Of a stretch of 32,000 bases of DNA, positions 7,000 to 27,034 are shown in pieces. The notes under the pieces are model-generated. The model was given only the letters and a program-made list of their open reading frames with translations. It did no database searches and was not told where the DNA came from. The stretch is from assembly GCA_963705375.1 (NCBI GenBank), contig OY970071.1:330001-362000 (forward strand). Reading direction: 5' to 3'. The translations under genes were made by a program, and so were the position numbers. This DNA is from Candidatus Saccharimonadota bacterium (GTDB lineage Archaea; Micrarchaeota; Micrarchaeia; Micrarchaeales; Micrarchaeaceae). Position 1 is the first letter of the stretch; each line of letters starts with the position of its first letter.

Positions 7000-8124
7000 A
7001 TGGTAGACCGCACTGATGGTAATTGGGCAACGCTTATTGACGTGAAGAGAATAGTGAATCCCAATGACGGGCCCATCAAGCTTATTTATCTCGCATCCGG
7101 CTCTGATGTAGCATATCCCCTCGCAGCAACAGGAGCCACGGACATGAGTTACATTGACGAAGTGGATTGTGTAAGGCAGATAAGTGACAATGTAAAACAG
7201 GTCGGCGGAAGATACCGTAGGGAATTAGGCTTGGGAGAAGATAGAACCGAGATAAACTTCAAGTGGAACAAGGAAGACAGGAAGCTTATCTTCCACAAGC
7301 TAAACATAACGAATGAGACGATCGGCCAACTTCAAGCAGATATGCAGGATATCGATGTTGTTTTTCTGAAGTTTTCTGTGTACAAGGGATACGTCCCGAC
7401 TGAAAAAGCCATAGAGGCGCTCAAGATTGGAGGCTTCTTTATATCGGATGCTTCATCGAGCCCATTGCACTTGGGTGAGGATAGCAGCCTAACACCGAAT
7501 AGTCTAGGATTGAAAGAAATACCGCTCAAATCTAGCCACAATTCCTTTAAGTGGATGGGAGGAGGAAACAGTCTGCTGCTATACCAGAAGACAAGGCAGA
7601 TGCCCAAGATCGGAGAGATGTTAGAGTTCGACGAGCTTTTTGGCAGGATTCGCAGCATCAGAAACGGCTTAATTAACGACGAAGATGTTGGTTCTAGTAA
7701 GAGCGAAAATGGCACAGGCCAATTTTCAGAGCTTGTTGGACGCGGTTACAAGAAAAAATTGATAGATCTGAAAAGACGGTTTGATGAATTGCCGTCTGAA
7801 GCCAGAGAAGAGATTAAACGAAGAACGATAAGCATATTGGTGGATGCGCCGGACATGAAGCTCGATGCTTATGATATTCATAGTCTAGGAGGATATTTCG
7901 AACCTGGATATGAAAGAAGGATTATTGTAGATTCTGAAACTGGTCGTTTAGTCCCGATATCCGAATCTCTGGCTAGAAAGCTAAACCTAGAAGATACGCA
8001 ACACGGCAGAGAGCTGAGTATAGAGGATGTGAATCGGTGGGAGAAGACGATCCAGAAACAGTTTGAGAGATATGTAGAAGATCGGAGGAATGATTTTAGA
8101 GAAGTCTTTAAGGACGGGGTTTAG
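7000..8124 (+). CDS. Hypothetical protein with a possible Rossmann/methyltransferase-like N-terminal half
   Basis: Long ORF with an ATG at 7000; the track start at 6904 is a TTG. LIYLASGSDVAYPLAATGA...YIDE, DVVFLK and LKIGGFFI loosely resemble class I MTase strands. No firm motif. Confidence 0.55.
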   Translation: MVDRTDGNWATLIDVKRIVNPNDGPIKLIYLASGSDVAYPLAATGATDMSYIDEVDCVRQISDNVKQVGGRYRRELGLGEDRTEINFKWNKEDRKLIFHKLNITNETIGQLQADMQDIDVVFLKFSVYKGYVPTEKAIEALKIGGFFISDASSSPLHLGEDSSLTPNSLGLKEIPLKSSHNSFKWMGGGNSLLLYQKTRQMPKIGEMLEFDELFGRIRSIRNGLINDEDVGSSKSENGTGQFSELVGRGYKKKLIDLKRRFDELPSEAREEIKRRTISILVDAPDMKLDAYDIHSLGGYFEPGYERRIIVDSETGRLVPISESLARKLNLEDTQHGRELSIEDVNRWEKTIQKQFERYVEDRRNDFREVFKDGV

Positions 8125-8256: not shown

Positions 8257-10041
8257 TTAGTCTTCGACATAGTCTCCGGACGCTTCCTTCTGCGCCTTTA
8301 ATTCTTGTTTTGATGGGATGTGGGCAGGGATCGCGATGTCCATGAGCCTCAAGAATGAATTGGTGAGGTTTCCAGACCAGATTATGTCCGTATCGAAAGC
8401 GTGTTGCGATTTGTACGTTTCGGCAAGAGCGGCCTGCTCATACATTATTCGGTCAAAGAGCAGCTTATATGCGTATTCTGGGCCAACTGTGCCCCGCATC
8501 TTCGTAAGGAACGCCTGGAACTCTTCTTGATCGAAAATTGATGGCGAGAAAGTGAGCTCATGGAATTCTAAGAGTGCTGCAAACCACGAGAGCTTGTAGG
8601 AATATAGTTGATTTGCGTGTGGAAGGGTCTGGAATTTTTTAGCACCTTGCCCATCAAGCCACGCTATTGTGAATAACAAATTGGGTTCGATACCGACCGC
8701 TCCGTGTTCCATCATTTCTTTCAATTTGCCATTAACATAAACTAATGTGCGTTCTAGATTATGGTTTTCGAAGTGGGCGTCCAGAGCATTTATCATGCCA
8801 TTAAGTTCTTGGTCAGAAGTGACTGGAGGTTTCTCGACCACAGGCTCTGTGTTCTTGAGTATGCGCTTTAAAATTTCGATGCGCGTTTCTTGCTTATTGT
8901 TCCCAGGGGGAATTTCGTCGTAGAAAACCTTATTGGGCTTCGGATTACTTTTGACATGCATACGAACCTCTTCAGGGAGAGCATCTTCGTCAGAAGGGTA
9001 TAAACCGACCTCTCGGCATATTCCCTGGAGATGTGCAGAATAGGATTCGCCGTCATAGGCTATTGCCCTGTTTATGACGTCATCTAGATCTGCCCCTCTG
9101 CCAGTAGTATAATAACCAATGAGTGTCTTGACGAGTTCGTGCACATAAGGCCTTTGGTCATGGGCTATCTCTCTAAAGCTTGACCAGTTGAGGTCGATGG
9201 CATCGGTCCTGTTTTGATCCAACTTTGCCAGTGTGGTGCCCGGAACCTGTCTCATGTCCATCAGAAGCTCGTTTATGTGCAAAGGCGTTACATCGAGGGC
9301 GTAGCAACGGATCACCAGATCTCCAAGACCAAATTCACCGTGCCCCATTGCAAATATGTTTTTGTCCACCGCACGCAATATGTCCACTTGCGGATCATTA
9401 TTCACGAGGGCAGGGAGCAGCTTGTTTATAAAACTGTCCGCACTTCCCTTGGCCAATAAATGGTTGGAGGCATAATAGTCGATGGATTCGATGAATAGTT
9501 TTTGTATGTCAGCATCGAGTTGTGGCACCTTCTTGTAAAGGTCCAAAAGCAAGAGCGTCTGCTCTGGACTATGCATAGATACGCCATCCCTTATTGCACG
9601 CATTGCCCAACCACGAAGCGAGCCACATTCAATATTTTCTGGTTTTGAAAAGACATAGGTGAAAACTTCGAGCGCGGCATCGAAATGTTCTCTTAGATCT
9701 TCCAGACCCAGAGGGGGCCTGCAACTCATTAGCTCCAGGAGGAGGTGCTCATATGCCCGACCGCGTTCCTTAACAGCATCAGCGTCTTGTCCTTTGAAGA
9801 ACAGCTCACCCCAGGCGTGTGCCTGGTGTTTGAAGAAGCGGGTTACGCCTTCAGGATCTTGGAGAAGCGTGGGCAGATCATTGGACGCACTTGGTTTCAT
9901 GATGTGTTCGATTTCTGACAGCATGCCCCCCATGGACTTGCCATACTGTGCTATCGATGCCACCTTATCTCGCGAAGGTTTTGCTTCCTCATCATGATTG
10001 GGTTTTTCTTCCTGCTGTACGTTGCTTTTCGTGGCTTTCAT
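8257..10041 (-). CDS. Hypothetical protein, 594 aa, apparently alpha-helical, no recognisable domain
   Basis: Long uninterrupted ORF. An ATATATAT box at about 10071-10078 lies roughly 30 bp upstream of the ATG at 10041. Confidence 0.6.
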   Translation of the reverse strand: MKATKSNVQQEEKPNHDEEAKPSRDKVASIAQYGKSMGGMLSEIEHIMKPSASNDLPTLLQDPEGVTRFFKHQAHAWGELFFKGQDADAVKERGRAYEHLLLELMSCRPPLGLEDLREHFDAALEVFTYVFSKPENIECGSLRGWAMRAIRDGVSMHSPEQTLLLLDLYKKVPQLDADIQKLFIESIDYYASNHLLAKGSADSFINKLLPALVNNDPQVDILRAVDKNIFAMGHGEFGLGDLVIRCYALDVTPLHINELLMDMRQVPGTTLAKLDQNRTDAIDLNWSSFREIAHDQRPYVHELVKTLIGYYTTGRGADLDDVINRAIAYDGESYSAHLQGICREVGLYPSDEDALPEEVRMHVKSNPKPNKVFYDEIPPGNNKQETRIEILKRILKNTEPVVEKPPVTSDQELNGMINALDAHFENHNLERTLVYVNGKLKEMMEHGAVGIEPNLLFTIAWLDGQGAKKFQTLPHANQLYSYKLSWFAALLEFHELTFSPSIFDQEEFQAFLTKMRGTVGPEYAYKLLFDRIMYEQAALAETYKSQHAFDTDIIWSGNLTNSFLRLMDIAIPAHIPSKQELKAQKEASGDYVED

Positions 10042-10305
10042 AGCACATCAAACATATTGGGGCGTGGACGATATATATGCCTTGCGTAGTTAAGTGACAA
10101 AAACGAAAGGGGAGTCTTCTGAAAAGAAAAATTTGCAACTGCGCAAAACCGGCCAGTACATTTTATTGTACTGTTCTTTGCTTATTAAGCAGGATGAGGC
10201 CCTGGCGGGCTCGCGCCTGCCAGGGTGGGTGGTTGGTGAAAATGGGCGTTAGCGTTAATCAAAAAATAAAGATGGGGTGGATTTCTCCATCCCGTCTGCA
10301 GAACA

Positions 10306-10557
10306 TCACTTGTTTCCGCCTAGTCTCTGAATTCTGTCTGCAAGTTTAGAACTACCGCTGAATTGAACGTCCAAGGTGTCGTAAGCGAAGTCCTGCGCTT
10401 TGGCTTTTCTATTGCCTTCATACTCTCCTTGCATTGCCATATGTTGGGTCATGTGCATTTTTTGCATTCGATCACTGCTACATATTATTCTTTTTCCAGA
10501 TATATATGCATTGCCAATTATTGCAATTTCTTTGTTAAAGTTTGTTATTTTGCACAT
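10306..10557 (-). CDS. Small hypothetical protein (83 aa), possibly the 3' part of an IS-interrupted ORF
   Basis: Its ATG is the first 3 nt of the IS target duplication (minus strand TGTCCGATG). See the finding at 10306-11685. Confidence 0.4.
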   Translation of the reverse strand: MCKITNFNKEIAIIGNAYISGKRIICSSDRMQKMHMTQHMAMQGEYEGNRKAKAQDFAYDTLDVQFSGSSKLADRIQRLGGNK

Positions 10558-10563
10558 CGGACA
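10555..10563. repeat. Target-site duplication, left copy (CATCGGACA)
   Basis: An identical 9-mer directly flanks both inverted repeats of the IS at 10564-11571. Confidence 0.8.
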
Positions 10564-11571
10564 GGTTCTGTAGAAATCCTCCTGACGTCGTAAATGTCTG
10601 ACACTTCCACTATTTCGGAAGGGGTATAAACCCCTCCTATCATTCTGTTTTTGGCGACAAAATGATAGTAGATAATTGGAACTCTAGATATAAGAAATTT
10701 GTAGAAATTGCGTTTCGCGAAGTGAAACGGGTGCTTAGGCCATATTCTGGAAAATTTTCAAAGAAAACATATACCCAATATCAACATGCAGTTGCAATAT
10801 TGTTGATGAAATACGAGAACAAACCGTATCGTGATGTAACCGATCTCTTGAAGGAGTTATGGACTTATTTTCGATTTGAAAAATCAGTACCGCATTTTAC
10901 AACATTGCAGAAATTTCTTAGCAGGATACCTGCATATGTGTTGGAATTCCTTTTGTCTAAGACGTATCAATTATTTGAGGCAAAAACGGCGAATGTCGGA
11001 GTAGATGGAACTGGATTCGGTGAGAACTACATGTCTTATTATTATAGGTTAAGACTGGCAGAATTTGGAGTTGAATTAAGTAAACGTAGGAAATTCATGA
11101 AACATTCTATCGCAGTAGACACAAATAATCAGGCAATAATTGCATCAGTAACCAGACAAGTGCCAAGACACGATACTATCGACTTTAAACCGCTTGTAGA
11201 GGCAAGTAGCGAATTAGTTGAGATAAGAAACGTAACCGCAGACAAAGGATATGATTCAGAGGCAAACCACGAATTTGTACGTGAAGTAATAGGTGGTAAA
11301 TCAATAATACCTCTGAGGCCAGTAAAATCTGGGTTAAATATGAAGGGTAAGTACCGGAGAATGTTACTTCTGCACTTTCCAATTCGACAGTACCATCAAA
11401 GAAGTAAGGTAGAAACAGTGAATTTTGTAGAAAAGAGGAAATTTGGGAGTGAATTACATAGCAGACTTTTGCGTTTACGAAGAAGAGAGCTGAAAATGAT
11501 CGACATTGTATACAATATTTACCGATATATGAAAATTAATTCTATGTCGATAATAGGATTTCTACAGGGCT
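10564..11571 (+). mobile_element. IS element, IS5 family (IS903-like), 1008 bp
   Basis: IRL is GGTTCTGTAGAAATCCT. The reverse complement of IRR is AGCCCTGTAGAAATCCT, with the inner 13 nt perfect. It has a 9-bp direct repeat and a single DDE transposase ORF. Confidence 0.85.
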
Positions 11572-11594
11572 CATCGGACAGAAGGACGAAATAA
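10662..11594 (+). CDS. DDE transposase (IS4/IS5 superfamily)
   Basis: Candidate catalytic triad contexts: VGVDGTGF, TADKGYDS, YHQRSKVETVN. The ORF reads through IRR and the TSD and stops in flanking DNA. A TATAAA box lies at about 10625. Confidence 0.85.
   Translation: MIVDNWNSRYKKFVEIAFREVKRVLRPYSGKFSKKTYTQYQHAVAILLMKYENKPYRDVTDLLKELWTYFRFEKSVPHFTTLQKFLSRIPAYVLEFLLSKTYQLFEAKTANVGVDGTGFGENYMSYYYRLRLAEFGVELSKRRKFMKHSIAVDTNNQAIIASVTRQVPRHDTIDFKPLVEASSELVEIRNVTADKGYDSEANHEFVREVIGGKSIIPLRPVKSGLNMKGKYRRMLLLHFPIRQYHQRSKVETVNFVEKRKFGSELHSRLLRLRRRELKMIDIVYNIYRYMKINSMSIIGFLQGSSDRRTK
11572..11580. repeat. Target-site duplication, right copy (CATCGGACA)
   Basis: Identical to 10555-10563 and directly abuts IRR. 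Confidence 0.8.
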
Positions 11595-11709
11595 CATGGC
11601 GCATAAGCGTTTGGCGTTCTGCATGTTCGCAGTTTTGGAGCGTCACAGTACAGGCGTCCGACGACAAAGCCGTCTGTAGCATCATTTGCAATTATTATCC
11701 GGAGACACC

Positions 11710-11988
11710 TCATATCGGAGAGGTATTTGTCCTGCCTTTGTTGCTTGCGCCGCGTGCATGACTGTGAGACGCCATTCTGTTCATCGCCGCACTATAAGTA
11801 TCCTGGAAATGACCTGATTTTTTGGATGGATCGAAATGCCCGGCATGGCCGGATGTACCCTGCGCTGCGTCCTTCAGTGCATCGTGCATTTCATCGCCCT
11901 GCCCTGTGCTCTGCTTGCTACGAAGAATTCTGCATATGCGACTATCATCGAACCTCTCATTTGACATGAAATCACTGCCGCATATCAC
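11710..11988 (-). CDS. Hypothetical small protein (92 aa, or less from an internal Met)
   Basis: The only sizeable ORF in this gap. Low-complexity His/Gly/Ser-rich sequence with no motif. Confidence 0.3.
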   Translation of the reverse strand: MICGSDFMSNERFDDSRICRILRSKQSTGQGDEMHDALKDAAQGTSGHAGHFDPSKKSGHFQDTYSAAMNRMASHSHARGASNKGRTNTSPI

Positions 11989-12135
11989 TCCATTAACGAA
12001 TAAATACCTTGTGTTTTATTGCAATTTGATTGAAATAATCTGCGATTTTGTAAAACAGCAAACGGTGTGCAAAGAGCGATCGAGAGATCATTTCAGAGTT
12101 CGCGTGTTTTCGCATGCCACGAACTCGATGATTAC

Positions 12136-17692: not shown

Positions 17693-19471
17693 ATGATGAA
17701 AAAACTTGCGATATTCCTATCATTGGCGACACTTTCACTTTTCTTCTCAACTTCACTATTCAACGGCAAGCAGTATTTTTCTTTTGCAGCTTCGCTTGGT
17801 TTGATAGTTCTGGGAGGCTTGGCCGCAGTAATGTTTGTGGCACCATACACCACTAAAGAGCAAGGATGGCGCAAAGAAAGGATTCTGATAGGTGTTGCGG
17901 CGCTGTCTACGGCTTTGATTATTTGCGAATATGTTTTCGCTTACACAAACCCGATAGCGCTCGCGAGCGTGAATCAACGCAATGGAGCTGCAACGCTGAT
18001 CACCGCATGTTTATCTGCAGCCATATCCTTGTCAGGGATATACTTCGTAAGCAAGTTTGCTGAAGGCAGAAATCGAAAAGTCACCTACGCCCTTATTATT
18101 GCAGGTGCAGTCTTTATCGCGTTCATTGTTTATTTCTTAGTGGTAGGGAGAGGCTACGGCACTGGTGCTTCTGATGAATTGGCCTTTAACTACTATGCCT
18201 CACAGCTCTTCCTGAGAGGGCAGAACCCATACACAACCAGCATGCAGCCCGCGCTCTCTATGTATTACAGCGCCAGGCCGACCATAAGGCTGAATGGCAG
18301 CATAGAAGATGCATACGTGTACCCCGCATTCAGCTTTATTTCACTTGCACCTATTTCTGTCTTTGAACCGCACTCGATATCTGCGGCCTATTGGCTCACA
18401 ATCCTATTGAGCGTTTGCTCGGCATTCATAGTCTTCATAGCAGCAGGCAGGAAGGTCGAAGTGCTGCTTCCGATAGGCGTATGGCTGACGATAAACTTCT
18501 ATTTCATAACGACTTTTGTGGAGCCAATAGCAATTTCAGTGCTGCTGCTTCTCGCATATCTCAATAGAAAGAACGTGTTACGCGCAGGAGTTCTTGCAGG
18601 GTTTGCCGCAGGAACGACGCAGCTTGCATGGTTTGGCATTCCGTTTCTGCTCGTGCTTGTGCTCAGGGAGCAAGGCCGAGGCCAGTTTTCAAGACTGCTT
18701 GCAGCCGCTATCCTCACCTTCCTAGTGCTGAACAGCTACTATCTGATCGCGTCACCGAGAGCAGTCTTGTCCGATTTAATCGGGACATTCGCAGGATTGA
18801 CGGTCAACGGCACCACGCTGGTGCAGTTGCTGGTCTCATTCTATCCAGTCGCATATTCTTACGCCCTTTTCCTTTTTGTATCGTCGTTCGCGCTTCTTCT
18901 TTTGCTTTTCTATCTGCACACCGAGACACTGAAACCGCTGGCTGCAGTCGCACCATTTGCGATTTTCTTTCTCGCCTGGAGGAACCTTGTTACTTACGGA
19001 ATGCCATTCGTGCCTGTTTTGATAGCTCTGCGATACGCGCACGACGGCACCGGCTGCGAGGATATAAAAAAATACGACAAGTGGTTTGTACCTGCCTTCG
19101 TTGCGTTTGTGCTTATATCTGCAGTGCTGCTTGTATACGCCCATGCGAGTTATGAGCGCAGCAACACGCTCAAGATAAACAGCGCCGCGCTGACTGCACT
19201 AGCCTTGAAAAACGGATCAGAAGCCAACTACGTGATAATAAACATATCGAATGATGCGAACACCGAAAGAAACGTCTCCGTTTACATATACTCGATAAAT
19301 CCGTCGCTCTTCATAACAGTACCAGGCTACATGGGCCACAGTGGCGTGCCTGCAGAGTCTTACGCACTCTTCGCAGATGCATATCCGTTAGGCGTCGAGA
19401 ATAATACGCGGTTATTCATCCTTGCTTTCGCGAACGGATCAATAACGAGCAAGCACATTGACGGTAAATGA
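17693..19471 (+). CDS. Polytopic membrane protein, GT-C-type glycosyltransferase-like (DUF2029/GT87-like)
   Basis: More than 10 hydrophobic segments. First loop motif SDELAFNYYASQLFLRGQNPY resembles the D-x-x-Y...G-x-x-P-Y loop of DUF2029/GT87 enzymes. About 120 aa at the C-terminus are non-membrane. No WWDYG (AglB) motif. Confidence 0.5.
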   Translation: MMKKLAIFLSLATLSLFFSTSLFNGKQYFSFAASLGLIVLGGLAAVMFVAPYTTKEQGWRKERILIGVAALSTALIICEYVFAYTNPIALASVNQRNGAATLITACLSAAISLSGIYFVSKFAEGRNRKVTYALIIAGAVFIAFIVYFLVVGRGYGTGASDELAFNYYASQLFLRGQNPYTTSMQPALSMYYSARPTIRLNGSIEDAYVYPAFSFISLAPISVFEPHSISAAYWLTILLSVCSAFIVFIAAGRKVEVLLPIGVWLTINFYFITTFVEPIAISVLLLLAYLNRKNVLRAGVLAGFAAGTTQLAWFGIPFLLVLVLREQGRGQFSRLLAAAILTFLVLNSYYLIASPRAVLSDLIGTFAGLTVNGTTLVQLLVSFYPVAYSYALFLFVSSFALLLLLFYLHTETLKPLAAVAPFAIFFLAWRNLVTYGMPFVPVLIALRYAHDGTGCEDIKKYDKWFVPAFVAFVLISAVLLVYAHASYERSNTLKINSAALTALALKNGSEANYVIINISNDANTERNVSVYIYSINPSLFITVPGYMGHSGVPAESYALFADAYPLGVENNTRLFILAFANGSITSKHIDGK

Positions 19472-19502
19472 CCGGAATTTTGCCACAAAGTAAGGTAAAG
19501 CC

Positions 19503-19511
19503 CATCAAACC
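19503..19511. repeat. CATCAAACC copy 1 (target duplication, left of element E1)
   Basis: The same 9-mer occurs at all four junctions: 19503, 20769, 21043 and 26750. The shared string is CCATCAAACCG if the flanking bases, which could belong to the IRs, are counted. Confidence 0.8.
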
Positions 19512-19531
19512 GACTCTGGGACAAAAGTCGA

Positions 19532-19693
19532 TTACTTTGATTTCCGCACCATGACGTAAACCATCTTGCCAATGTACTCTTTAGGACAATCGATTTTTGC
19601 TCCTGTTCCGAACCGAGTTACAGGTTTCTCAAAAACAACTACAACATCGTCTCCGATTTTAAGTTTGTTCTTTATTACTTCAATTTTCCTCAT
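19532..19693 (-). CDS. Small transposon-encoded protein, DUF2080/AbrB-SpoVT-like (53 aa); below the ORF-track cutoff
   Basis: Hand translation: MRKIEVIKNKLKIGDDVVVVFEKPVTRFGTGAKIDCPKEYIGKMVYVMVRKSK. The pattern fEK.V..fG..AkI..PKeyiGK.VyV matches my memory of archaeal DUF2080. GGTGTG lies 4 nt upstream of the ATG. Confidence 0.55.
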   Translation of the reverse strand: MRKIEVIKNKLKIGDDVVVVFEKPVTRFGTGAKIDCPKEYIGKMVYVMVRKSK

Positions 19694-19756
19694 TTACCAC
19701 ACCGTATAATATATATTAATATATATTTAAATACTTTTCCTTTCAATAATAATATC

Positions 19757-20752
19757 ATGGCAAAAACCAAAAGGTTAACGAATAGACAGTTCCGAAGATT
19801 TTTCAAGGAGTTCAAGAAACTGATTGAGATTTACGGCGAAAAAACGGCAGAAAAACACACTGACTGGAAAACATATGAAGAAGAATATGCAAATAGGATA
19901 AGATATGTCGCGAAAGAGTTGAACATTCTTACAAAATCAGCAATAGACTCTATTGAGATGAAGGTATCCAAATTCGGAAGACCTGCAAAATTGTCTCTCC
20001 AACAGAAGGTGGTTGCGCTTATCCTAAAATCGATTTTCTGCAAAAACAACAGACCAATGGCCGGACTGATGTCCCTTTTTGGCGCATTTTGTGGCATTGA
20101 CATTAGTTACAAAACTGTCGAAAGGATGTATTCTGATGAACTGGTGCGAATTGTTTTGCACAACATGTTTATTCTGACGATAAAACGAAAATGTGATAAG
20201 AAAATAGATGTGAGCGGAGACGGAACGGGTTACACACTAACAGTAACGAAACATTACCGTACACAAGTCGATAAAGAAGGGTACAGGAAATTCGTGTATT
20301 CGTTCAATCTCATCGACATAAAGAATGGGTTGTACATATGTTATGGCTCGGGTATACGATCTGAAAAGGAAGCATTCGAAAATGCAATGAAGCTGCTCAG
20401 AAATGTAGAGGTGGCCACAGGGATAACAGTCAATAGTGCAAGGTTAGACAGGTACTATAGTTACCAATCAACTTTGAAGTATTTTGACGACAAAACTGTT
20501 TTGTACATAATCCCAAAGAGCAACACAACAATAAATGGCCCGTCTAGATGGAGGAAGATATTCAGACGGATGATGAAGGATCCTCTGTCCTACTTGATAG
20601 AGTACTACAAAAGGGAGAAGTCTGAGAATGGTTGGTCTGTAGATAAACGGATGGTTGGGTGGAAAATATGGCAGAAAAGAAATGACAGAATCGATACAGC
20701 AATAAGTTGTACTGCAACACTTCACAACTTATTCAGAATCGGTTATGGATGA
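19757..20752 (+). CDS. DDE transposase of E1
   Basis: VSGDGTGY, ARLDRYYS and REKSENG contexts. The block YIIPKSNTTINGPSRWRKIFRRM is homologous to YIPFKSNTTAIGGGNKARLWRRMF in the transposase at 22530-23723. Confidence 0.8.
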   Translation: MAKTKRLTNRQFRRFFKEFKKLIEIYGEKTAEKHTDWKTYEEEYANRIRYVAKELNILTKSAIDSIEMKVSKFGRPAKLSLQQKVVALILKSIFCKNNRPMAGLMSLFGAFCGIDISYKTVERMYSDELVRIVLHNMFILTIKRKCDKKIDVSGDGTGYTLTVTKHYRTQVDKEGYRKFVYSFNLIDIKNGLYICYGSGIRSEKEAFENAMKLLRNVEVATGITVNSARLDRYYSYQSTLKYFDDKTVLYIIPKSNTTINGPSRWRKIFRRMMKDPLSYLIEYYKREKSENGWSVDKRMVGWKIWQKRNDRIDTAISCTATLHNLFRIGYG

Positions 20753-20768
20753 CTTTTGTCCCAGAATC

Positions 20769-20777
20769 CATCAAACC
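20769..20777. repeat. CATCAAACC copy 2 (between E1 and E2)
   Basis: It directly abuts the IRR of E1 and the IRL of E2. Confidence 0.8.
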
Positions 20778-21042
20778 GAGTCTGGGACATAAGTCAACCA
20801 TTATTTTGGCACTCTACCTTTTCAGGTCTTCTATATTATCTCTGCCAAAATCTTTATCGTTTTGCATCCAAATTATATTGACCAGAGCAAGGCGGATCAG
20901 TAATAATGTCCGTTCTGTCGTCAAAGAACGATAGAAAAAGGCCGTTTAGACCGAGTGAATCCAAAAGGCATCTTAAAACAGCAAGTAGCCTTTTCTATTC
21001 TGGTTCTTATCTAGGAGTGAGAAGGACTTTTGTCCCAGAGTC
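20778..21042. mobile_element. MITE E2 (265 bp, non-autonomous relative of E1)
   Basis: IRL is GAGTCTGGGACATAAGTC. The reverse complement of IRR is GACTCTGGGACAAAAGTC (16/18, and identical to the IRL of E1). No credible ORF. Flanked by CATCAAACC. Confidence 0.8.
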
Positions 21043-21051
21043 CATCAAACC
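21043..21051. repeat. CATCAAACC copy 3 (between E2 and E3)
   Basis: It directly abuts the IRR of E2 and the IRL of E3. Confidence 0.8.
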
Positions 21052-21076
21052 GGCTTTGTGTAAAAAGGTGTGAAAA

Positions 21077-22078
21077 ATGATGGGTTCTTACACAATAAAA
21101 GGCGTTTTTACACAAAAATATGCTCTCTATCTTTATGCATCCAATACAAACCTTTTTAATAATCTCATCAGAAGTAGATATATGGTAGACAGTAAATTCT
21201 ATTACTATAGGATGTGGTGCAAAGATTATAAATTCAATAAAGACCTCAGTAATTTAGCTGCGAAACAAAATTGGCAAGAAAATACTAAAAAATACAAGAT
21301 ACCTCATGAGGATGGGACTTTAGAGGAAATCGCCATAGAAAAAGTTGATGATAGATATTTTGGCAAAATAATGAAAACAAAACCCAAAAAGCAACATTTT
21401 GGCAAAAATGAGGGGGAAGTTAAAGTCGGAGAGCTAAAAACAAAATTTGAATTGGTTGGAGAGAAAGAAAGAGATATAACATATTTTGCGTTTTTACCTT
21501 ATAAATTAAAAGACCTATTATTTTTAACAGAGATTCACTCTGGAAATAGGGGTATGAATACAATTAAAGAGTTCTTTAATAAATGCATGCCATCAACTTA
21601 TGAATTTAAATCTGAGCCACTTAAAACCCCCAAATTACTTGATTTGAAAAAATTTGCACCAAGAGAAATTAAAAAGATTCTACTCACGTATAAACGGGAT
21701 GTTCCAGAAGGCATACCTGTTGAAGATGCAATCAAAAAACTTAGGATTGAAGAAGATTGGCAAGTTATTGTTGGGGCAAAGATTAGATTGCAAAGAAAAA
21801 AACAGAATGTTTTTGTCACTCTTGACAACGCATTTAAAACGCTTTTTGGAAATGCATTAACTTCGGCAATCGATGAAGGGGTTGACCTTCCTAATATCCT
21901 ATCTAACATAGGTGTTGCTTTCAAAGAAGACAAAAGTAATAGAACACAGGATATTTTGAAAGACTATGAGAGGGAAGTGATATATCTGCAAAAGGGTAAT
22001 TTGAATGATGCGCAAATTAGTGATACTCTATTTGAAAAACTTACTACAAAACTAAAAGAGTTGGAGAAACATGGATAG
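21077..22078 (+). CDS. Hypothetical protein, 333 aa, Lys-rich, soluble, no recognisable domain
   Basis: Long ORF. GGTGTG lies 4 nt upstream of the ATG at 21077. An alternative ATG at 21182 has a TTTTAATAA box about 25 bp upstream. The stop overlaps the next ORF's start. Confidence 0.65.
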   Translation: MMGSYTIKGVFTQKYALYLYASNTNLFNNLIRSRYMVDSKFYYYRMWCKDYKFNKDLSNLAAKQNWQENTKKYKIPHEDGTLEEIAIEKVDDRYFGKIMKTKPKKQHFGKNEGEVKVGELKTKFELVGEKERDITYFAFLPYKLKDLLFLTEIHSGNRGMNTIKEFFNKCMPSTYEFKSEPLKTPKLLDLKKFAPREIKKILLTYKRDVPEGIPVEDAIKKLRIEEDWQVIVGAKIRLQRKKQNVFVTLDNAFKTLFGNALTSAIDEGVDLPNILSNIGVAFKEDKSNRTQDILKDYEREVIYLQKGNLNDAQISDTLFEKLTTKLKELEKHG

Positions 22079-22544
22079 CCGTTCAGTATTTGCTGATTTT
22101 ATATACACCTTAATTATCGTGAGTATATACTTTTTGATAATGTTTTACGGAGTTCATAATTCCAGTCCATTCTCATATTTACAAGATACTTCTGTAGTGT
22201 CCTCATTAATCATAATTATCACTTCGATATTGGGCGTTATTGCAGTTATAATTACATTATTCTCCGTTTTTGAAGAAGCATTCAAAAATAACGAGATTAT
22301 CAAAGCATTAAAGAAAAGAAACGATTTTATTCAGATTTTTAAAAGATATAGTGATTCTATTTTTGTTATGTTTTTTTCAATTATTGTGATAATTATTACT
22401 TGGATTGCATCCAACAATTTGAAACAATTAGCACCTTATCTATTACCAATAATGACTTTTGCCATAATCATCTCTTTTATTAGGACGTATAGATGCTTTA
22501 AAATATTCAAATTATTGACTGATGCAATCTCAGATAGTAGATGA
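22071..22544 (+). CDS. Small membrane protein, 157 aa, four predicted TM helices
   Basis: Hydrophobic segments: FADFIYTLIIVSIYFLIMFYGV, VVSSLIIIITSILGVIAVIITLFSVF, SIFVMFFSIIVIIITWIA, LAPYLLPIMTFAIIISFI. ATG at 22071 overlaps the upstream TAG (ATGGATAG), with GGAG upstream. Confidence 0.65.
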   Translation: MDSRSVFADFIYTLIIVSIYFLIMFYGVHNSSPFSYLQDTSVVSSLIIIITSILGVIAVIITLFSVFEEAFKNNEIIKALKKRNDFIQIFKRYSDSIFVMFFSIIVIIITWIASNNLKQLAPYLLPIMTFAIIISFIRTYRCFKIFKLLTDAISDSR

Positions 22545-23723
22545 ACTTTGAATTTCGTTGTTCACAATTACAATATTATGGCACAGCACTTTCAGCAACA
22601 ACTCATTAATCTGTGCCGTTTCTGTTTTGCTTCTTATAAGGTCGCTAAACTTTGCCTTTATCATACTGAATGTGCTCTCCACATTAGACCTTAGATGATA
22701 GTGGTTCAGAAATTCCTCTTGCTTTAACTGATAATACCAAAACATTCTGCGCCACAACCTTGCCTTGTTGCCACCACCTATTGCGGTTGTGTTGCTCTTG
22801 AAAGGGATATACGCCTGTCCGCCTATCTGTTGCACGGCGTTGTAGTTGGCAATTGAGGAATACGCCTTATCTGCCGAGACCTCGTTCATTATGAAGCCAG
22901 CGTCAAAAGTAGCATTTACAAGAGGTATAAACTTAGGGCAGTCCGCACCTTGACCTATCTCTGCCTCTACTCCAGTTATGATATTGGTTTTAACTCCTGT
23001 AATTATGTGTGCCTTAATCCAAACATGCTCTTTCTTCAGGTGGTGCTTCTCCCTGCAATAGTCGTTGAAGTGTGTAGTCCTAAAACCGCTACTGTCTACT
23101 GCGAATTTGTCCTCAACGTTTCTTAGGGGCAAGGACGATATTTGTATGAGCCTTGACAGAATTGGTGTTAATTCTGGCTTCTGTATGAAATGACCCACAG
23201 AAGCGAAGCAAGGCTTAGAAGATACAAGACTCTTATCCCTCGCTGTGCTAAGGTCGCTCATAAACCTGCGAAGTGAGAACTGGCTATACACCTTCAAAGC
23301 TGATGCAAAGATGAGGTCTCTATAACTAGTCTTGGGGCGTCCTGTTTCACTCTGCATAGGCTCTGGCACTTCTTGGCACAGGTCTTTCAGCAATTCCATA
23401 AACTTGGTCTTTTCCTGCTCCTGATTTATGTTGTAGTTGTGCCAGTCTTGCGGATAAACTTTCTTCTTTATCGTTATCGTGGTTTCATTACCTTGCTTGT
23501 CAAACCATTTGAGGACTATGGTCATTACGGCGTAGACGTGCTTGCACGGCTGTTGCCTCAATTCATAGTCAGGGCAGTTGCACTTGAAGCCACCTTCAAG
23601 ACTTCTGCTTACCGTATAAGTGCCTCTGCCTGACTGACTCGGCACTATCCAGTTGTAAGCATCCTTTTTCTGTATTTGGCGCATCTGTGCTATCTGTTGT
23701 CCTTTCAATCTTCGTTCATCCAT
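22530..23723 (-). CDS. SWIM zinc-finger + DDE transposase of E3
   Basis: SWIM motif CNCPDYELRQQPCKH. DDE contexts FAVDSSGF, VSADKAYSS, HLRSNVESTF. ATG at 23723 is preceded by GGTGTGCAA; the track start at 23729 is a GTG. Confidence 0.85.
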   Translation of the reverse strand: MDERRLKGQQIAQMRQIQKKDAYNWIVPSQSGRGTYTVSRSLEGGFKCNCPDYELRQQPCKHVYAVMTIVLKWFDKQGNETTITIKKKVYPQDWHNYNINQEQEKTKFMELLKDLCQEVPEPMQSETGRPKTSYRDLIFASALKVYSQFSLRRFMSDLSTARDKSLVSSKPCFASVGHFIQKPELTPILSRLIQISSLPLRNVEDKFAVDSSGFRTTHFNDYCREKHHLKKEHVWIKAHIITGVKTNIITGVEAEIGQGADCPKFIPLVNATFDAGFIMNEVSADKAYSSIANYNAVQQIGGQAYIPFKSNTTAIGGGNKARLWRRMFWYYQLKQEEFLNHYHLRSNVESTFSMIKAKFSDLIRSKTETAQINELLLKVLCHNIVIVNNEIQSSSTI

Positions 23724-23736
23724 TTGCACACCTTAC

Positions 23737-23795
23737 ATATCATACATATAATATATATTATATAGCAAAGGTATTTATACCTATGTGTATGATAT
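23737..23795. promoter_or_regulatory. Divergent promoter region with a 12-bp inverted repeat (ATATCATACATA ... TGTGTATGATAT)
   Basis: The arms at 23737-23748 and 23784-23795 match 11/12 as an inverted repeat. They lie between the transposase and the RHH/RM genes. A TATTTATA box sits at about 23773-23780. Confidence 0.4.
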
Positions 23796-23802
23796 ATATA
23801 AT

Positions 23803-23964
23803 ATGGTAAAAGCAAAAAAACGCGAGGACAAAGCAGTCGCCAAATCCATTACCATAACGATAAGGCATCAGCTATTCATAGAAGCCCGAAGCATAAATCT
23901 ATCTAAATTTGTTCAGAAGAAGTTAGACGAGGAAATAGAACTGCAAAAATGGACAGAAGGTTAG
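23803..23964 (+). CDS. Ribbon-helix-helix (CopG/Arc-like) small DNA-binding protein, 53 aa; below the ORF-track cutoff
   Basis: Hand translation: MVKAKKREDKAVAKSITITIRHQLFIEARSINLSKFVQKKLDEEIELQKWTEG. A beta-strand (ITITI) followed by two helices is the RHH pattern. It ends 4 nt before the RM gene's ATG. Confidence 0.6.
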   Translation: MVKAKKREDKAVAKSITITIRHQLFIEARSINLSKFVQKKLDEEIELQKWTEG

Positions 23965-23968
23965 ATTG

Positions 23969-26695
23969 ATGGACAAAGAGCTTCTAAAGAAGAACCTTAT
24001 CAAGAAGATTGAGGACTTCGATAGTAAAGACCATGATGGGGAATCTGAAAGGGATGTATGCAGAGCGTACATAGAACCACTTTTTTCTTATCTCGGCTGG
24101 GACATGAGTAATACGGATGAGGTAAAAGAGCAAAAGAACGAACCAGAGGGAAGACCAGATTATATTTTTTATCTGAATGGTAGTATTGCACTTTTCTTGG
24201 AAACAAAGAAAGTCAAAACGATTGATGAAGCTGACATAAAGCAAGCCCTAAACTATGGCAGAAGCCGAAATAAACGCTGGTCTGTTCTATCTAATTTTGA
24301 AGAAACAATAATCTTGATATGTGATACTAAAGAAACATCTCTATCGAATCATATCTTTAGGCGCATTTCCTATAAGAAAATGACTGAAGACTTAGACAGT
24401 TTGCTATTGCTATCAAGAGAAAGTTTTGAAACTGGTTTTATAGATTCTAAAGCGCAAGATGAAGGAAGGATAAAGAAAACCATCAGAATAGATGAAGAAC
24501 TACTTAACGACATTTTGCTTTGGAGAAAAGAGCTTATAAAGTCCATAAAGACCGAAAACAAAAAGCAATACTCAAAAGAAACATTAGAAGAAATAGCTCA
24601 GATACTACTCAATCGCATAATATTCATAAGAACAGTAGAAGATAGACGGATAGAAGCACAACCAGACGAAACTATAAAATCTATCCTAAATCAGTATGAA
24701 AATAACAAATCTGTAAAAATCAAGGATAAACTAAACAAACTGTTTGAAGAATACGATAAGACCTATGACAGTAAACTATTCACTTACGATGAGCATAATT
24801 TCGGGAATAGGCATGAAAGCGAGAAAGTAGAGATAGACAATAAAACATATTATAAGATACTAAAAGAGACTTACGAGAAGAACGAGATTTACTCGTACAA
24901 GTTCGGGGATATTGATGCAGATATTCTTGGAGATATGTATGAACGGTATATAGGAAATATAGATGAGTTTAGAAAGAAACAAGGAATTTATTATACACCT
25001 ACTTGGGTAGTAGATTACATAGTAAATAATACAATCGGGCTTATGTTTGGCAATAAGTCTAAAAAAACAATTTCAGAACTGAAAATATTGGATATGGCTT
25101 GCGGTTCTGGGTCATTTCTCCTAAAGGCTTTTGACAGTTTTAATGACCATTACAAATTAAACAGAAAGAAATATTTTCAGTCTGGTCTGGATTTAATTAG
25201 CGAATCTTCAATAATAACACAAAAAACTAAGATACTAAAAGAGCACATATTCGGCGTAGACCTTGACGTAAAAGCAGTAGAGATTGCACAACTAAACCTA
25301 TTGTTGAAGATAGCAGAAACAAAACATAGATTGCCTGATTTGAAGAATAATATAAAGCAAGGAAACTCATTAGTTGAGGACAAGAACGTTGATACCGAAT
25401 ATGCTTTTGACTGGGAAAGTAATTTCAAAGAGATAATGGATAATGGTAGATTTGACATAGTAATAGGTAATCCACCATACTCCTTTACCAGAGATGCTGA
25501 TTTTACAGACTTAGTAAAAGAGTATGCTAATGAGCATTATTTCAAAGGGTTAGATTCAGTATCTAAGGGTCATGCAAGGCAGTCAGGAAAAATCAATTTA
25601 TATTCCCTATTCTTAATTAGAGGAATTCAATTACTAAAAGAAAACGGCGTATTAGGATTTATCATACCAAATAATCTACTGAGAACTACAACCTATGACA
25701 TAATAAGAGAATTTATATTGAAGAACTGCAAGATATTGCAGATAGTAGATTTAGGTGCGGGAGTTTTTGAGAATGCAACAGTAGCGACCACAATAATTAT
25801 ACTTCAAAAAGAGAAAAGCCAAATCAAAAGAAATAGAAATAAAGTATCAATAATATATGACGTAGTTAATTTTGACTTGTCGAACAAGAAGTATAAAACT
25901 CATACAGTCGGGCAAAATGAGTTTTTAGAGAATACAAGCCATGCTTTCAACATAACATCAGATAAAGAAGCAACAGAATTGCTTAATACGGTGGGCAAAA
26001 ATTCCAAACTATTGGGCGATATAACCACAATTCATGCTGGTGGGATTGCAACAGGTTCAAATAAGAAAGAAATGATACTTGATTATCCTAAAAACTCTAA
26101 ATACAAACCCATGTTAGAAGGAAAGGACATAAAACCATTTCTTGCAGAGTTCTCTAATAGATATATCTTATATGACAGAGAAAAATTGAGGAGAGCGAGG
26201 GACGAAAATATATTCTTAAGTTCGGAGAAGGTAATAACCCAGAGAATTGGAGGAGGGAAACGGGTTATTGTTGCTTCTTATGATGACAAACAGTACTATA
26301 CGTTTAATTCTACTAATTCCATTCTTCAGAAAGATAAGGAATATTCACTAAAATACATAACAGCGTTGCTAAATTCTAATCTTCTTAACTATTATTATGT
26401 TAATAAATTTACAAATGAATCTATGCTGACGGTTAATATATCCAAAACCTTTTTAGAGAACCTACCAATCAAGAGGGTAGATGAATCCAAACAAAACCCT
26501 TTCATAAAATTAGTAGATGAAATTTTGGAATTATCCAAAACTATGAATAAGGATTATAATACTAATTCGGGGATAGAAAACAGAGACAAGATAGTGGCAA
26601 AGATGGATGCAATAAATGAATTGGTATACGACTTATATGGTTTAACAGAAACCCAAAAGAAACTTGTAAAAGCATGGATAGGTGTCGGAAAATGA
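23969..26695 (+). CDS. Type IIG restriction-modification enzyme (PD-ExK nuclease fused to an N6-adenine gamma-class methyltransferase and a specificity domain)
   Basis: N-terminal nuclease motif RPDYIF...ALFLETKK (PD...ExK). SAM motif I LDMACGSGSFLL. Catalytic motif IV IGNPPY. A long C-terminal region plausibly recognises the target. Eco57I/MmeI-like architecture. Confidence 0.85.
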   Translation: MDKELLKKNLIKKIEDFDSKDHDGESERDVCRAYIEPLFSYLGWDMSNTDEVKEQKNEPEGRPDYIFYLNGSIALFLETKKVKTIDEADIKQALNYGRSRNKRWSVLSNFEETIILICDTKETSLSNHIFRRISYKKMTEDLDSLLLLSRESFETGFIDSKAQDEGRIKKTIRIDEELLNDILLWRKELIKSIKTENKKQYSKETLEEIAQILLNRIIFIRTVEDRRIEAQPDETIKSILNQYENNKSVKIKDKLNKLFEEYDKTYDSKLFTYDEHNFGNRHESEKVEIDNKTYYKILKETYEKNEIYSYKFGDIDADILGDMYERYIGNIDEFRKKQGIYYTPTWVVDYIVNNTIGLMFGNKSKKTISELKILDMACGSGSFLLKAFDSFNDHYKLNRKKYFQSGLDLISESSIITQKTKILKEHIFGVDLDVKAVEIAQLNLLLKIAETKHRLPDLKNNIKQGNSLVEDKNVDTEYAFDWESNFKEIMDNGRFDIVIGNPPYSFTRDADFTDLVKEYANEHYFKGLDSVSKGHARQSGKINLYSLFLIRGIQLLKENGVLGFIIPNNLLRTTTYDIIREFILKNCKILQIVDLGAGVFENATVATTIIILQKEKSQIKRNRNKVSIIYDVVNFDLSNKKYKTHTVGQNEFLENTSHAFNITSDKEATELLNTVGKNSKLLGDITTIHAGGIATGSNKKEMILDYPKNSKYKPMLEGKDIKPFLAEFSNRYILYDREKLRRARDENIFLSSEKVITQRIGGGKRVIVASYDDKQYYTFNSTNSILQKDKEYSLKYITALLNSNLLNYYYVNKFTNESMLTVNISKTFLENLPIKRVDESKQNPFIKLVDEILELSKTMNKDYNTNSGIENRDKIVAKMDAINELVYDLYGLTETQKKLVKAWIGVGK

Positions 26696-26749
26696 GTTTT
26701 TACACAAGCAGGTTAGTTTTTACACAGAAAGAGGTTAATACACAAAGCC

Positions 26750-26758
26750 CATCAAACC
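26750..26758. repeat. CATCAAACC copy 4 (right of E3)
   Basis: It directly abuts the IRR of E3. Confidence 0.8.
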
Positions 26759-27034
26759 GAAAGCCATATATATCTAGATAGCTCTATATCTATCAGAAGA
26801 AGAAGTTCAGATAAGGTACAGCAGTTGAATAAATCTTATCCTTGAACAAGTCAAGAAAGCACATAAAATATAAAGGTTTCATAACGGAAAGTTCTGAAAT
26901 TTTTAGCTGCTTTTGCAGCAGTCTGGGCGGCTTGAAATCTGTTAGCCGCTGAAGTTCTTCTTCTCTGATTTTTAATAAATAAACTTATTCTAGAAATTTC
27001 TTTCTGAAAGTTTGCATTAAAACGACAAAGCAGT

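Follow-up and report, generated by a model that had tools for sequence, protein, structure and literature searches.

Three mobile elements of the DDE-transposase type stand in tandem in the window, by which we mean the whole 32,000-nucleotide stretch of DNA analyzed here, separated only by copies of one 9-bp sequence, CATCAAACC. We favor the explanation, with a probability of roughly 0.6, that the array arose from three successive DDE insertions, all cut at one 9-bp stagger to which termini already in place, or sequences resembling termini, had guided them. An earlier note on this DNA had proposed that new insertions re-used a target copy duplicated beside an element already present, and this proposal is supported: the three units are DDE-type mobile elements with inverted repeats (IRs) and a 9-bp duplication, neither a recombinase gene in the array nor a tRNA gene near it was found, and junctions recur in an independent assembly. 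The features, in order along the window, are as follows.

19497..19502, + strand: chromosomal flank AAAGCC (a "pseudo-end"), identical to the final 6 bases of the E3 right end
19503..19511, + strand: T1, first copy of the 9-bp target duplication CATCAAACC; junction also in Logan contig L003
19512..20768, + strand: E1, an autonomous insertion sequence (IS) of 1257 bp with 18-bp IRs at 19512-19529 and 20751-20768
19532..19693, - strand: E1 accessory gene for a 53-aa DUF2080 transposase-associated protein (PF09853, NF033496); gene call also in L001
19757..20752, + strand: E1 transposase, 331 aa, a distant IS5-family relative (NCBIfam NF033579 IS5_2, weak match)
20769..20777, + strand: T2, second copy of CATCAAACC, between the E1 right IR and the E2 left IR (24-nt arms, 9 nt between)
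20778..21042, + strand: E2, a non-coding MITE of 265 bp with E1-type termini, likeness at the ends only
21043..21051, + strand: T3, third copy of CATCAAACC, between E2 and E3; junction in Logan contig L015
21052..26749, + strand: E3, an IS903-like unit transposon of 5698 bp with IRs GGCTTTGTGTA at 21052-21062 and 26739-26749
21077..22544, + strand: two E3 passenger ORFs of 333 aa (21077-22078) and 157 aa (22071-22544), without a match in family and PDB searches
22530..23723, - strand: E3 transposase, 397 aa, SWIM zinc finger plus DDE_Tnp_1 (PF01609, PF04434, NCBIfam IS5_2)
23803..23964, + strand: small ORF, 53 aa, weakly CcdA/ribbon-helix-helix-like (Pfam CcdA at 19.9 bits, short of its 22.4-bit cut-off)
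23966..26695, + strand: type IIG restriction-modification (RM) enzyme, 909 aa, an E3 passenger (Pfam Eco57I, N6_Mtase, TaqI_C; PADLOC REase_MTase_IIG, 7e-97)
26750..26758, + strand: T4, fourth copy of CATCAAACC, at the E3 right end and followed by the chromosomal flank GAAAGCC

The four plus-strand copies of the 9-mer start at 19503, 20769, 21043 and 26750, and between successive copies lies exactly one element with its inverted repeats abutting the 9-mer; a single minus-strand copy, unrelated to the array, lies within a gene at 7778. By chance 0.29 copies would be expected per window, and none of 100 shuffles reached five. The earlier description of four 9-mers for three elements, with IRs directly against them, was thus accurate (IR matches of 17/18 in E1, GACTCTGGGACAAAAGTC; 16/18 of the E1 motif in E2; 11/11 in E3, which has subterminal TGTGTAAAAA repeats besides), as were its element lengths and its count of 31 bp between the first 9-mer and the stop codon of the upstream gene, which ends at 19471 and, although labelled GT-C in that description, has no match in Pfam or NCBIfam. 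The insertion site is intergenic, in a spacer of ~316 bp with the 3' ends of two convergent genes on either side. With the AAAGCC flank included, the array is enclosed by a direct repeat of 17 bp, AAAGCCCATCAAACCGA at 19497 and 26744, and the longer flank TTTTGCCACAAAG..AAAGCC is similar to the E3 terminus and IR (p about 0.02 by shuffling).

The junctions were checked independently in Logan contigs (k=31) from run ERR11594402 of the same sample, which are 100% identical to the window. One of these (L001) is E1 base for base with exact boundaries, L003 spans the flank-T-E1 junction and L015 the E2-T-E3 junction, and L002 covers the E3 end and the genes to its right, being placed in the window by gene layout and its first bases rather than by alignment. 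Three of the four junctions are thus reproduced in the k-mer assembly, that at the E3 right end by inference, and E1-T-E2 is seen in the window's own assembly. No empty site was found.

E1 combines a DUF2080 protein and 18-bp IRs with the 9-bp target-site duplication (TSD) seen here and in its relative L006 (CAGGCATTA), these being the only two E1-type copies with a verifiable TSD. Its transposase aligns end to end with the NF033579 IS5_2 model, yet weakly, at 37 bits where the cut-off is 140, and has no Pfam match; the accessory protein exceeds the 22-bit cut-off of NF033496 with 27.8 bits and also matches PF09853. Transposase relatives with 70-80% identity are present in DPANN archaeal metagenome-assembled genomes (MAGs). 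A TSD is absent in three of four complete E1-type relatives, all on MAG or metagenome contigs, perhaps reflecting chimeric assembly across a repeat. E2 is a MITE in being short, non-coding, multi-copy, flanked by a 9-bp TSD and furnished with the ends of its partner: its likeness to E1-type ends is confined to the terminal 18-24 nt, with 16-18 of 18 positions identical to the E1 IRs and 23/24 to the right end of L007. Since L015 begins 30 nt before the E2 end, this end must recur elsewhere in the sample with another flank.

E3, with a GC content of 33% against about 50% in the host, is not a simple transposase-only IS of ~1 kb, as it has five further ORFs including the type IIG RM gene, and all the complete relatives found are likewise passenger-carrying unit transposons, of 3.1-6.1 kb. 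Its transposase matches PF01609 (6e-19, 69 bits, cut-off 23) and PF04434, and aligns end to end with NCBIfam IS5_2 (1e-27), where its 97 bits fall below the cut-off of 140, so that it is not an equivalog; the family has 6361 matches at E<=1e-20. The 53-aa ORF is possibly a regulator of the RM gene, and a small ORF occupies the equivalent position in L016, L017 and L175. The E3 IRs begin with GGC and have CATCAAACC on both sides, a pattern repeated, each time with its own 9-bp duplication, in eleven relatives, whose TSDs are exact, and in the bacterial ISAba10. That the three elements are related, as had been suggested, is true only in part: E1 and E2 share their ends, whereas E3 is of a different and only distantly related lineage. 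The E1 and E3 transposases both match the IS5 model (E1 weakly) and align in BLASTP with 30% identity over 91 aa (E=0.003). The IR tips of the two types are similar, having a tip and an A-rich core in common, and GGCTTTG..AAAAG is present in the E3 ends as well as in the E1 relatives L006 and L010.

Two further claims of the earlier note had to be revised. It held that the length of the TSD could be fixed no more tightly than 9-11 bp, but relatives with unambiguous flanks in both lineages have duplications of 9 bp, namely L006 for the E1 type, and nine IMG/VR elements, L172, L175/L177 and the bacterial ISAba10 for the E3 type; hence the repeat is a 9-bp target-site duplication. It also considered strong site specificity for the 9-mer. 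However, the 14 E3-type duplications compared are all different, each of the twelve E1-type right flanks compared differs from the others, and Logan contigs break exactly at the E1 and E2 ends, indicating that the sample contains further copies of both in different surroundings. Strict specificity for the 9-mer is ruled out by these varied flanks of E1-, E2- and E3-type copies. Half of these E3-type TSDs, seven of 14, resemble the element tips in having CC at the end or GG at the start, where the background rate is 14% (p=0.0014, post hoc); this speaks for end-like targets.

The other option raised earlier, an attraction to existing ends, gains independent support from unrelated contigs on which ends of this family lie 9, 10 or 15 bp apart. 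In L017 an E3-like RM transposon lies 9 bp from the end of another IS of the family with its own transposase gene, in L187 an element whose TSD is intact is offset by 1 bp from a related element's end, which makes the spacing 10 bp, and in L186 two related elements have 15 bp between them. The 9-bp length of the L017 spacer is that of the E1/E2 and E2/E3 junctions, and the looser spacings of L187 and L186 show adjacency, not exact re-use of a TSD. No end-like flank was seen at about 10 of the 14 complete E3-type insertions. For the E1 type, one relative (L006) lies beside an IR-like motif, GGACAAAGTC, and the case for end-targeting by this type is thin. Taken together, these contigs suggest that elements of this family tend to insert beside resident ends.

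We accordingly envisage a scenario in which three DDE-transposase insertions would have occurred, one after another, in one intergenic spot between convergent genes of a ~1.2-Mb archaeal genome, probably of DPANN/Micrarchaeota type judging by its size and by the hosts of relatives, each with staggered cuts 9 bp apart at the identical two positions. Such identical cuts would add one CATCAAACC per event, and thus yield four copies for three elements. The signal would not be the 9-mer; rather, insertion would favor DNA that immediately adjoins a transposon terminus or a sequence resembling one. Such a resemblance may have been present in the chromosome at AAAGCC|CATCAAACC, AAAGCC being the tip of the E3 right end, and the empty site, read as its reverse complement, is GGCTTTC-GGTTTGATG-GGCTTT, in which tip-like motifs are clustered. 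Once the first element was resident, its end and the adjoining duplication would form an even better target for the next, and a resident end of one lineage could attract the other, given the tip and A-rich core common to E1-type and E3-type ends. Any order of insertion is inferred, as is the contact of the transposase or transpososome with the resident end that would set the register.

The principal competing explanation, which we consider rather unlikely, is that CATCAAACC with its native flanks is intrinsically preferred through its local sequence or structure and was struck three times independently, resident ends being irrelevant. Nine consecutive in-register bases, AAACC|GAAA, are common to the window and the unrelated L172 across the right TSD boundary; this points to some plain sequence preference and counts against end-targeting. 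The CC/GG enrichment in E3-type TSDs leans the same way, as does the degenerate palindromic target preference known for IS903-group elements (WTTYA-N9-TRAAW in IS903, a motif that is not end-like; PMC2577343), and after an E3 insertion the right-hand copy, T4, retains the 17-bp context of the empty site. However, the first insertion strips a native flank from all copies of the target but one, and two later hits were nonetheless in perfect register; moreover, E1-type flanks elsewhere are unlike the window site, the 14 E3-type TSDs are otherwise unrelated, and an intrinsic preference leaves unexplained the tandem pairs of L017, L187 and L186, whose spacer sequences differ. Insertion guided by termini remains our preferred reading.

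The other accounts fare worse. An assembly artefact, in which E1, E2 or E3 would be alternative occupants in different cells threaded into one path, is improbable. E1 and E2 are indeed multi-copy in the sample, chimeric joins at repeats of such length are frequent in metagenome contigs, several relatives lack TSDs and the E1-T-E2 junction comes from a single assembly; but the source is a single contig of 1,209,602 bp, and the reads contain k-mers across the E2 end-T-E3 start (L015) and flank-T-E1 (L003), whereas single alternative occupancy predicts flank-T-E3 and E2-T-flank k-mers instead. Slightly less credible again is random insertion followed by survival solely at a harmless spot. A site between the 3' ends of convergent genes in a small, compact genome of ~1.2 Mb would suit it, but selection cannot fix cut positions to the base, and hundreds of equally harmless positions were available in the ~316-bp spacer, E2 and the passenger regions, yet the identical 9 bp were hit thrice; this register argument makes it implausible. 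We give least credence to a composite island moved or assembled by a site-specific recombinase, in which the two 17-bp copies of AAAGCCCATCAAACCGA would be attL and attR, and the 9-mers between them hybrid att sites. The entire array does lie between perfect direct repeats of 17 bp, and tandem re-use of one att site is well known in integrase-borne elements and casposons (PMC6563490). Against this, the ORFs of the 19.5-26.8 kb interval yielded no tyrosine or serine recombinase domain, Cas1 casposase, TnsD-like protein or other dedicated target selector, and the only tRNA gene of the window is distant, at 117-188. Each unit has its own IRs, and E1 and E3 each encode a DDE transposase; in the 17-mer, the 6+2 bases beyond the 9-mer belong to the E3 IR tip and the E1 IR start, as the partner IRs and relatives confirm; and varied 9-bp duplications are the rule in both families. 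An island of this kind is thus largely refuted.

If insertion is indeed guided by termini, a broader generalization is conceivable, though we hold it to be doubtful and advance it tentatively. In archaeal IS903-like transposases, comprising the lineages of the SWIM-DDE transposons and the DUF2080-associated ISs, any resident terminus of the family might serve as a landmark for target capture, with one strand transfer at the terminus or at most 1-2 bases from it, even across lineages. An array would in this way build itself up at a single site, and, with restriction-modification and other defence genes on the larger members, this could be a transposase-driven route to defence islands in very small DPANN genomes.

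Among known systems, the IS903-type elements of the IS5 family are like E3 in the DDE_Tnp_1 transposase (IS5 model), the tip GGCTTTGT and the 9-bp target duplication, and ISAba10, tested here, has the same tip, with the IR GGCTTTGTTGCATAAATA and a 9-bp TSD, CTTTTAACT. IS903 itself starts with GGCTTTGTTG. The E3 transposase is just 22-24% identical to the bacterial members and, unlike them, has an N-terminal SWIM zinc finger; they are about 1 kb long with one ORF, whereas E3 spans 5.7 kb with five passenger ORFs and has an archaeal host. IS903 has no reported tendency to land by resident ends. E1 is like the DUF2080-associated archaeal ISs in its small DUF2080 gene (NF033496) divergent from the transposase, but this transposase falls below every curated family cut-off, and E2 is a classical MITE with the ends of its partner, like the MITEs of those ISs. 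The alternation of repeat and element downstream of a gene, with n+1 repeats for n elements, is shared with casposons, Tn7-like elements at attTn7 and integrase islands, for which tandem arrays of site-specific elements are described (PMC6563490; see also PMC11014353). Those elements depend on a fixed site read by a selector (Cas1, TnsD or an integrase), whereas the array in the window is without such a protein and the same elements use many other targets. IS30 and IS911 insert adjoining their own IRs, for IS30 with a spacer of duplication length and head-to-tail IR-IR junctions (PMC9333248). The likeness is in the placement of a new copy directly against a resident IR and, for IS30, in the duplication-length spacer, here 9 bp. 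These are copy-out-paste-in elements of the IS30 and IS3 families, with circle or dimer intermediates, 2-4 bp spacers and their own IRs as targets, whereas here IS5-type elements of two lineages and a MITE are set 9 bp apart; neither an IR-IR circle junction of a single element nor a dimer was seen, and our non-exhaustive literature search found no report of IR-targeting by IS5-family elements. With these differences, the behavior that we propose would resemble the IR-targeting of IS30 and IS911.

The 9-mer CATCAAACC is present in four copies on the forward strand of the window, starting at 19503, 20769, 21043 and 26750; a fifth copy, on the reverse strand at 7778, lies within a gene and is unrelated to the array. 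By chance 0.29 matches per window are expected, and five were reached in none of the shuffles. The intervals between the 9-mers of the array are 1257, 265 and 5698 bp, in agreement with the sizes in the earlier note, and each carries its own inverted repeat (IR) at both termini, flush with the 9-mer. The coordinates and IR boundaries thereby confirm the observation made there of three elements separated by four copies of the target. The features of the array are:

19512-20768: E1, an IS with the IR GACTCTGGGACAAAAGTC (17/18)
19532-19693, reverse strand: DUF2080 'transposase-associated' protein of E1, 53 aa
20778-21042: E2, bearing the IR motif of E1 (16/18)
21052-26749: E3, a transposon with the IR GGCTTTGTGTA (11/11) and, inside it, subterminal TGTGTAAAAA-like repeats
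21077-22544: passenger ORFs of E3, of 333 aa and, hydrophobic, of 157 aa
within E3, reverse strand: transposase, 397 aa, with a SWIM zinc finger and DDE_Tnp_1; IS5_2 at 1e-27
23803-23964: small ORF of E3 between the transposase and restriction-modification (RM) genes, weakly CcdA/ribbon-helix-helix-like, under the Pfam cut-off
within E3: type IIG RM enzyme, 909 aa

The stop codon of the upstream ORF, at 19471, is 31 bp 5' of the first 9-mer, as had been stated before; searches of this ORF, labelled a GT-C gene in the earlier note, against Pfam and NCBIfam gave no match that would bear out the label. The array is bounded by a perfect 17-bp direct repeat, AAAGCCCATCAAACCGA, composed of the 9-mer, AAAGCC and GA, of which AAAGCC is the right tip (the outermost IR bases) of E3, matched by the left chromosomal flank of the first 9-mer, and GA is the first two bases of E1, matched by the right flank. 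Compared with a GC content of about 50% in the genome on either side, that of E1 and E2 is 40% and that of E3 33% (19001-27000 versus the rest of the window), a drop that fits a foreign origin; another low-GC stretch, with 40-42%, lies at 10001-12000.

Every copy of the 9-mer is preceded by C and followed by G, so that the window alone is ambiguous between a duplication of 9 and one of 11 bp. The range of 9-11 bp given previously is settled as 9 by the relatives: an E1-type element (L006) has CAGGCATTA at both flanks, E3-type elements have AGCTAAACC around L172 and GTGTGGGCC around L175/L177, nine complete E3-type elements in IMG/VR have exact 9-bp duplications, and ISAba10 in L181 has the IR GGCTTTGTTGCATAAATA and the 9-bp duplication CTTTTAACT. 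The repeat of the array is therefore a 9-bp target-site duplication (TSD). Complete relatives on five MAG, metagenome or viral contigs (L004, L005, L009, L182 and L193) are without matching duplications, for which assembly chimeras spanning multi-copy elements, or copies recombining with one another, may be the reason.

The window is drawn from a single contig of 1,209,602 bp. For an independent comparison we used Logan de Bruijn contigs (k=31) of run ERR11594402, which match the window with 100% identity and end at the points expected of a repeat-resolved graph. One of these (L001) comprises bases 19512-20768 only, i.e. exactly E1; L003 leads from the upstream genes across the first 9-mer to 30 nt inside E1; L015 extends from the last 30 nt of E2 across the third 9-mer into E3; and L002, placed by its gene layout and first bases, contains the end of E3 along with the genes on its right-hand side. 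With respect to the assembly artefact that the earlier note had envisaged, three of the four junctions of the array thus have independent support: flank-T-E1 and E2-T-E3 (T being the 9-mer) from k-mers present in the reads, and E3-T-flank from the gene layout of L002. At the Logan contig breaks, E1 and the end of E2 recur in the sample beside a different base, and hence neither element is tied to CATCAAACC. The gap between L015 and L002 corresponds to 23395-24106 inside E3, covering the 5' portion of the gene for the transposase and the spacer between it and the RM gene; from this break the segment appears to be multi-copy in the sample, and the passenger genes of E3 single.

The E1 transposase (331 aa) aligns weakly, from end to end, with the NCBIfam model IS5_2 and had no match in a Pfam search. 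Relatives with 70-80% identity occur in MAGs of Micrarchaeota, Woesearchaeota and Marsarchaeota, and scans of genomes and metagenomes recovered 11 loci; a profile of E1-type transposases found no relatives in IMG/VR, and literature searches covering DUF2080 and the IS elements of Micrarchaeota brought up nothing pertinent to targeting. E2 has no coding potential and resembles E1-type ends only in its terminal 18-24 nt (23/24 with L007); on these sequence features it is a MITE. As the similarity ends there, an origin of E2 by in-situ deletion of a duplicated E1 is ruled out.

E3 has six ORFs, including the transposase, the RM enzyme, the small ORF and two ORFs without a family match. The 333- and 157-aa ORFs had no match in Pfam, NCBIfam or PADLOC, nor did the former, the one of the pair searched there, have any in PDB; their position is taken in relatives by a 174-aa ORF and DUF4747 (L175) or by ORFs of 197 and 267 aa (the P0006 contig). 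The small ORF, also seen at the equivalent position in L016, L017 and L175, may encode a controller of the RM system or a regulator resembling an antitoxin. The SWIM+DDE unit transposons to which E3 belongs form a very large family in archaea (6361 transposase matches at E<=1e-20), whose members are 3-6 kb in length, with passenger genes in every complete member found; those surveyed were window 21052-26749, L017, L172:2503-8437, L175:3494-~9700 and loci L185-L199. The passengers are often defence modules, exchanged between close relatives: a type IIG RM gene in E3 of the window, L017 and L175; a HinfI endonuclease with an N6/N4 methylase, adjoining an at least 90%-identical transposase, on the P0006 contig; and a DUF87 ATPase with DruA in L172. 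The closest bacterial plasmid relatives of the E3 transposase are IS5-like, including ISAba10, ISPpa3 and ISRhba5, at 22-24% identity. The Klebsiella plasmid matches are not IS903, the one record inspected being a transposase remnant that lacks annotation and is situated between ISCR1 and armA, and ISAba10 was therefore taken for the comparison of IRs and TSDs.

The transposases of E1 and E3 share 30% identity over 91 aa (E=0.003) and are distant relatives only; the element starts are alike, with GGCTTTGGGACAAAAGTC in the E1 relatives L006 and L010 and GGCTTTGTGTAAAAAGGT in E3. Thus, the description of the three elements as related was partly right: they fall in one broad IS5-type group, but represent two distinct lineages, E2 being a MITE of one of them. 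All three are new members of already known kinds.

In a genome of 1.2 Mb, two more insertions in exactly this register cannot be put down to chance, and a targeting bias is therefore needed, for which strong site specificity and attraction to existing ends had been offered. The former fares poorly: the other flanks of E1 and E2 in the sample, 12 of 12 right flanks of E1-type elements and 14 of 14 E3-type duplications all differ, and strict sequence specificity for the 9-mer is excluded by these comparisons. A softer target sequence preference does exist, with half of the E3-type duplications (7/14) starting with GG or ending with CC, like the tips, against a background of 14% (p=0.0014, post hoc), and with AAACC/GAAA across the duplication boundary (slash) being common to the sites of the window and L172; a plain sequence hot spot might thereby contribute to the repeated insertion at the 9-mer. 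That insertions survive only in a harmless spot between convergent genes is an implausible explanation, selection being unable to set insertion positions to the base. The movement of one larger element by a site-specific recombinase, an alternative named in the earlier note, is not supported: the array holds no recombinase, Cas1 or Tn7-type gene, no tRNA gene lies nearby, and the 17-mer resolves into the 9-mer and the tips of E3 and E1. Entry of E1+T+E2 into T as a single composite was also rejected, because its inner spacer would equal the new target only by chance.

Attraction to existing ends is supported by end-to-end adjacency recurring in unrelated contigs, which is the strongest new evidence for it. 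In L017, which comes from another sample, an RM transposon resembling E3 starts 9 bp (CCAAGATTG) past the end, ...ACAAAGCC, of a different member of the family, which has its own partial transposase gene with about 64% nucleotide identity to that of E3. In L187 the spacing is 10 bp, as an element with the intact duplication AAATGATCC misses the end of a related element by one base; two related elements are spaced 15 bp apart in L186, one family member is nested within another in L175, and in L006 an E1-type IS adjoins the IR-like motif GGACAAAGTC.

The nested element (L175:9255-15197), the second GGCTTTG-ended one, interrupts the first transposon in its DUF4747 gene and encodes a DDE transposase of its own, of 335 aa, along with Vsr, a Dcm-type methylase and a HATPase protein; its site is uninterrupted in L177. 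Beside the E1-type IS of the Woesearchaeota MAG, an imperfect small palindrome (L006:2215-2256), GCTTTTGTC-N10-GACAAAGTC, is similar to the inner part of family IRs and may be a footprint, a solo-end relic or a hairpin target.

The chromosome itself offers an end-like motif: the longer left flank, TTTTGCCACAAAG..AAAGCC, is similar to the E3 terminus TTTTTACACAAAGCC (p about 0.02), and the empty site, read on the opposite strand as GGCTTTC-GGTTTGATG-GGCTTT, has clustered tip-like motifs. Tested across the E3 family, a flank mimicking the element's own tip (AAAGCC/N9) occurs in the window and next to real neighbours, but not at most solitary insertions, making it a contributing preference and no rule. 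DNA-pattern scans of IMG/VR gave chance matches only (hairpins or lone, unpaired ends), namely 33 for the tip-N9-tip pattern ACAAAGCC N9 GGCTTTGT, 11 for the E3 IR and 110 for the E1 IR. No empty site was present among the 11 E1-transposase loci, and exact-protein look-ups of the flanking genes gave contigs of the same sample only.

We propose that the transpososome of these IS5-type elements would prefer target DNA abutting a terminus or a terminus look-alike, with one strand transfer at the tip and the other 9 bp distant. The first element would have been drawn by the chromosomal pseudo-end, AAAGCC, and the next target would each time be a resident end with its adjoining duplication, the 9-mer being duplicated anew; cross-attraction between the lineages would operate via their similar tips. 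We infer the part played by transposase-end contacts, and the support for the mechanism comes from comparisons within a sample of modest size. The behaviour amounts to two IS5-type lineages and a MITE re-using one 9-bp duplication exactly, together with a recurrent, looser adjacency in relatives.

If this is true, end-targeting extends beyond the copy-out-paste-in families (IS30, IS3) of its first description and also operates across related element lineages. It would likewise provide a simple account of the accumulation of mobile elements and defence cargo at few sites in streamlined archaeal genomes, which spares genes from disruption. Were only a hot spot involved, the array would be a tidy, ordinary case of IS clustering. 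With its three elements, four identical duplications and empty-site sequence, the array is a clean natural substrate for target-capture tests.

The nearest documented behaviour is the IR-targeting of IS30 and the targeted transposition of IS911, in which a new copy is set against a resident IR, the spacer in IS30 having the length of the normal duplication (PMC9333248). Both move by copy-out-paste-in and direct insertion to their own ends, whereas the array consists of IS5-type elements of two lineages along with a MITE. The presence of n+1 repeats for n elements is known from casposons, Tn7-like elements and integrase-borne islands (PMC6563490), which share this arithmetic with the array but depend on a fixed-site selector. 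Finally, the target consensus of IS903, WTTYA-N9-TRAAW as tabulated in PMC2577343, is not end-like.
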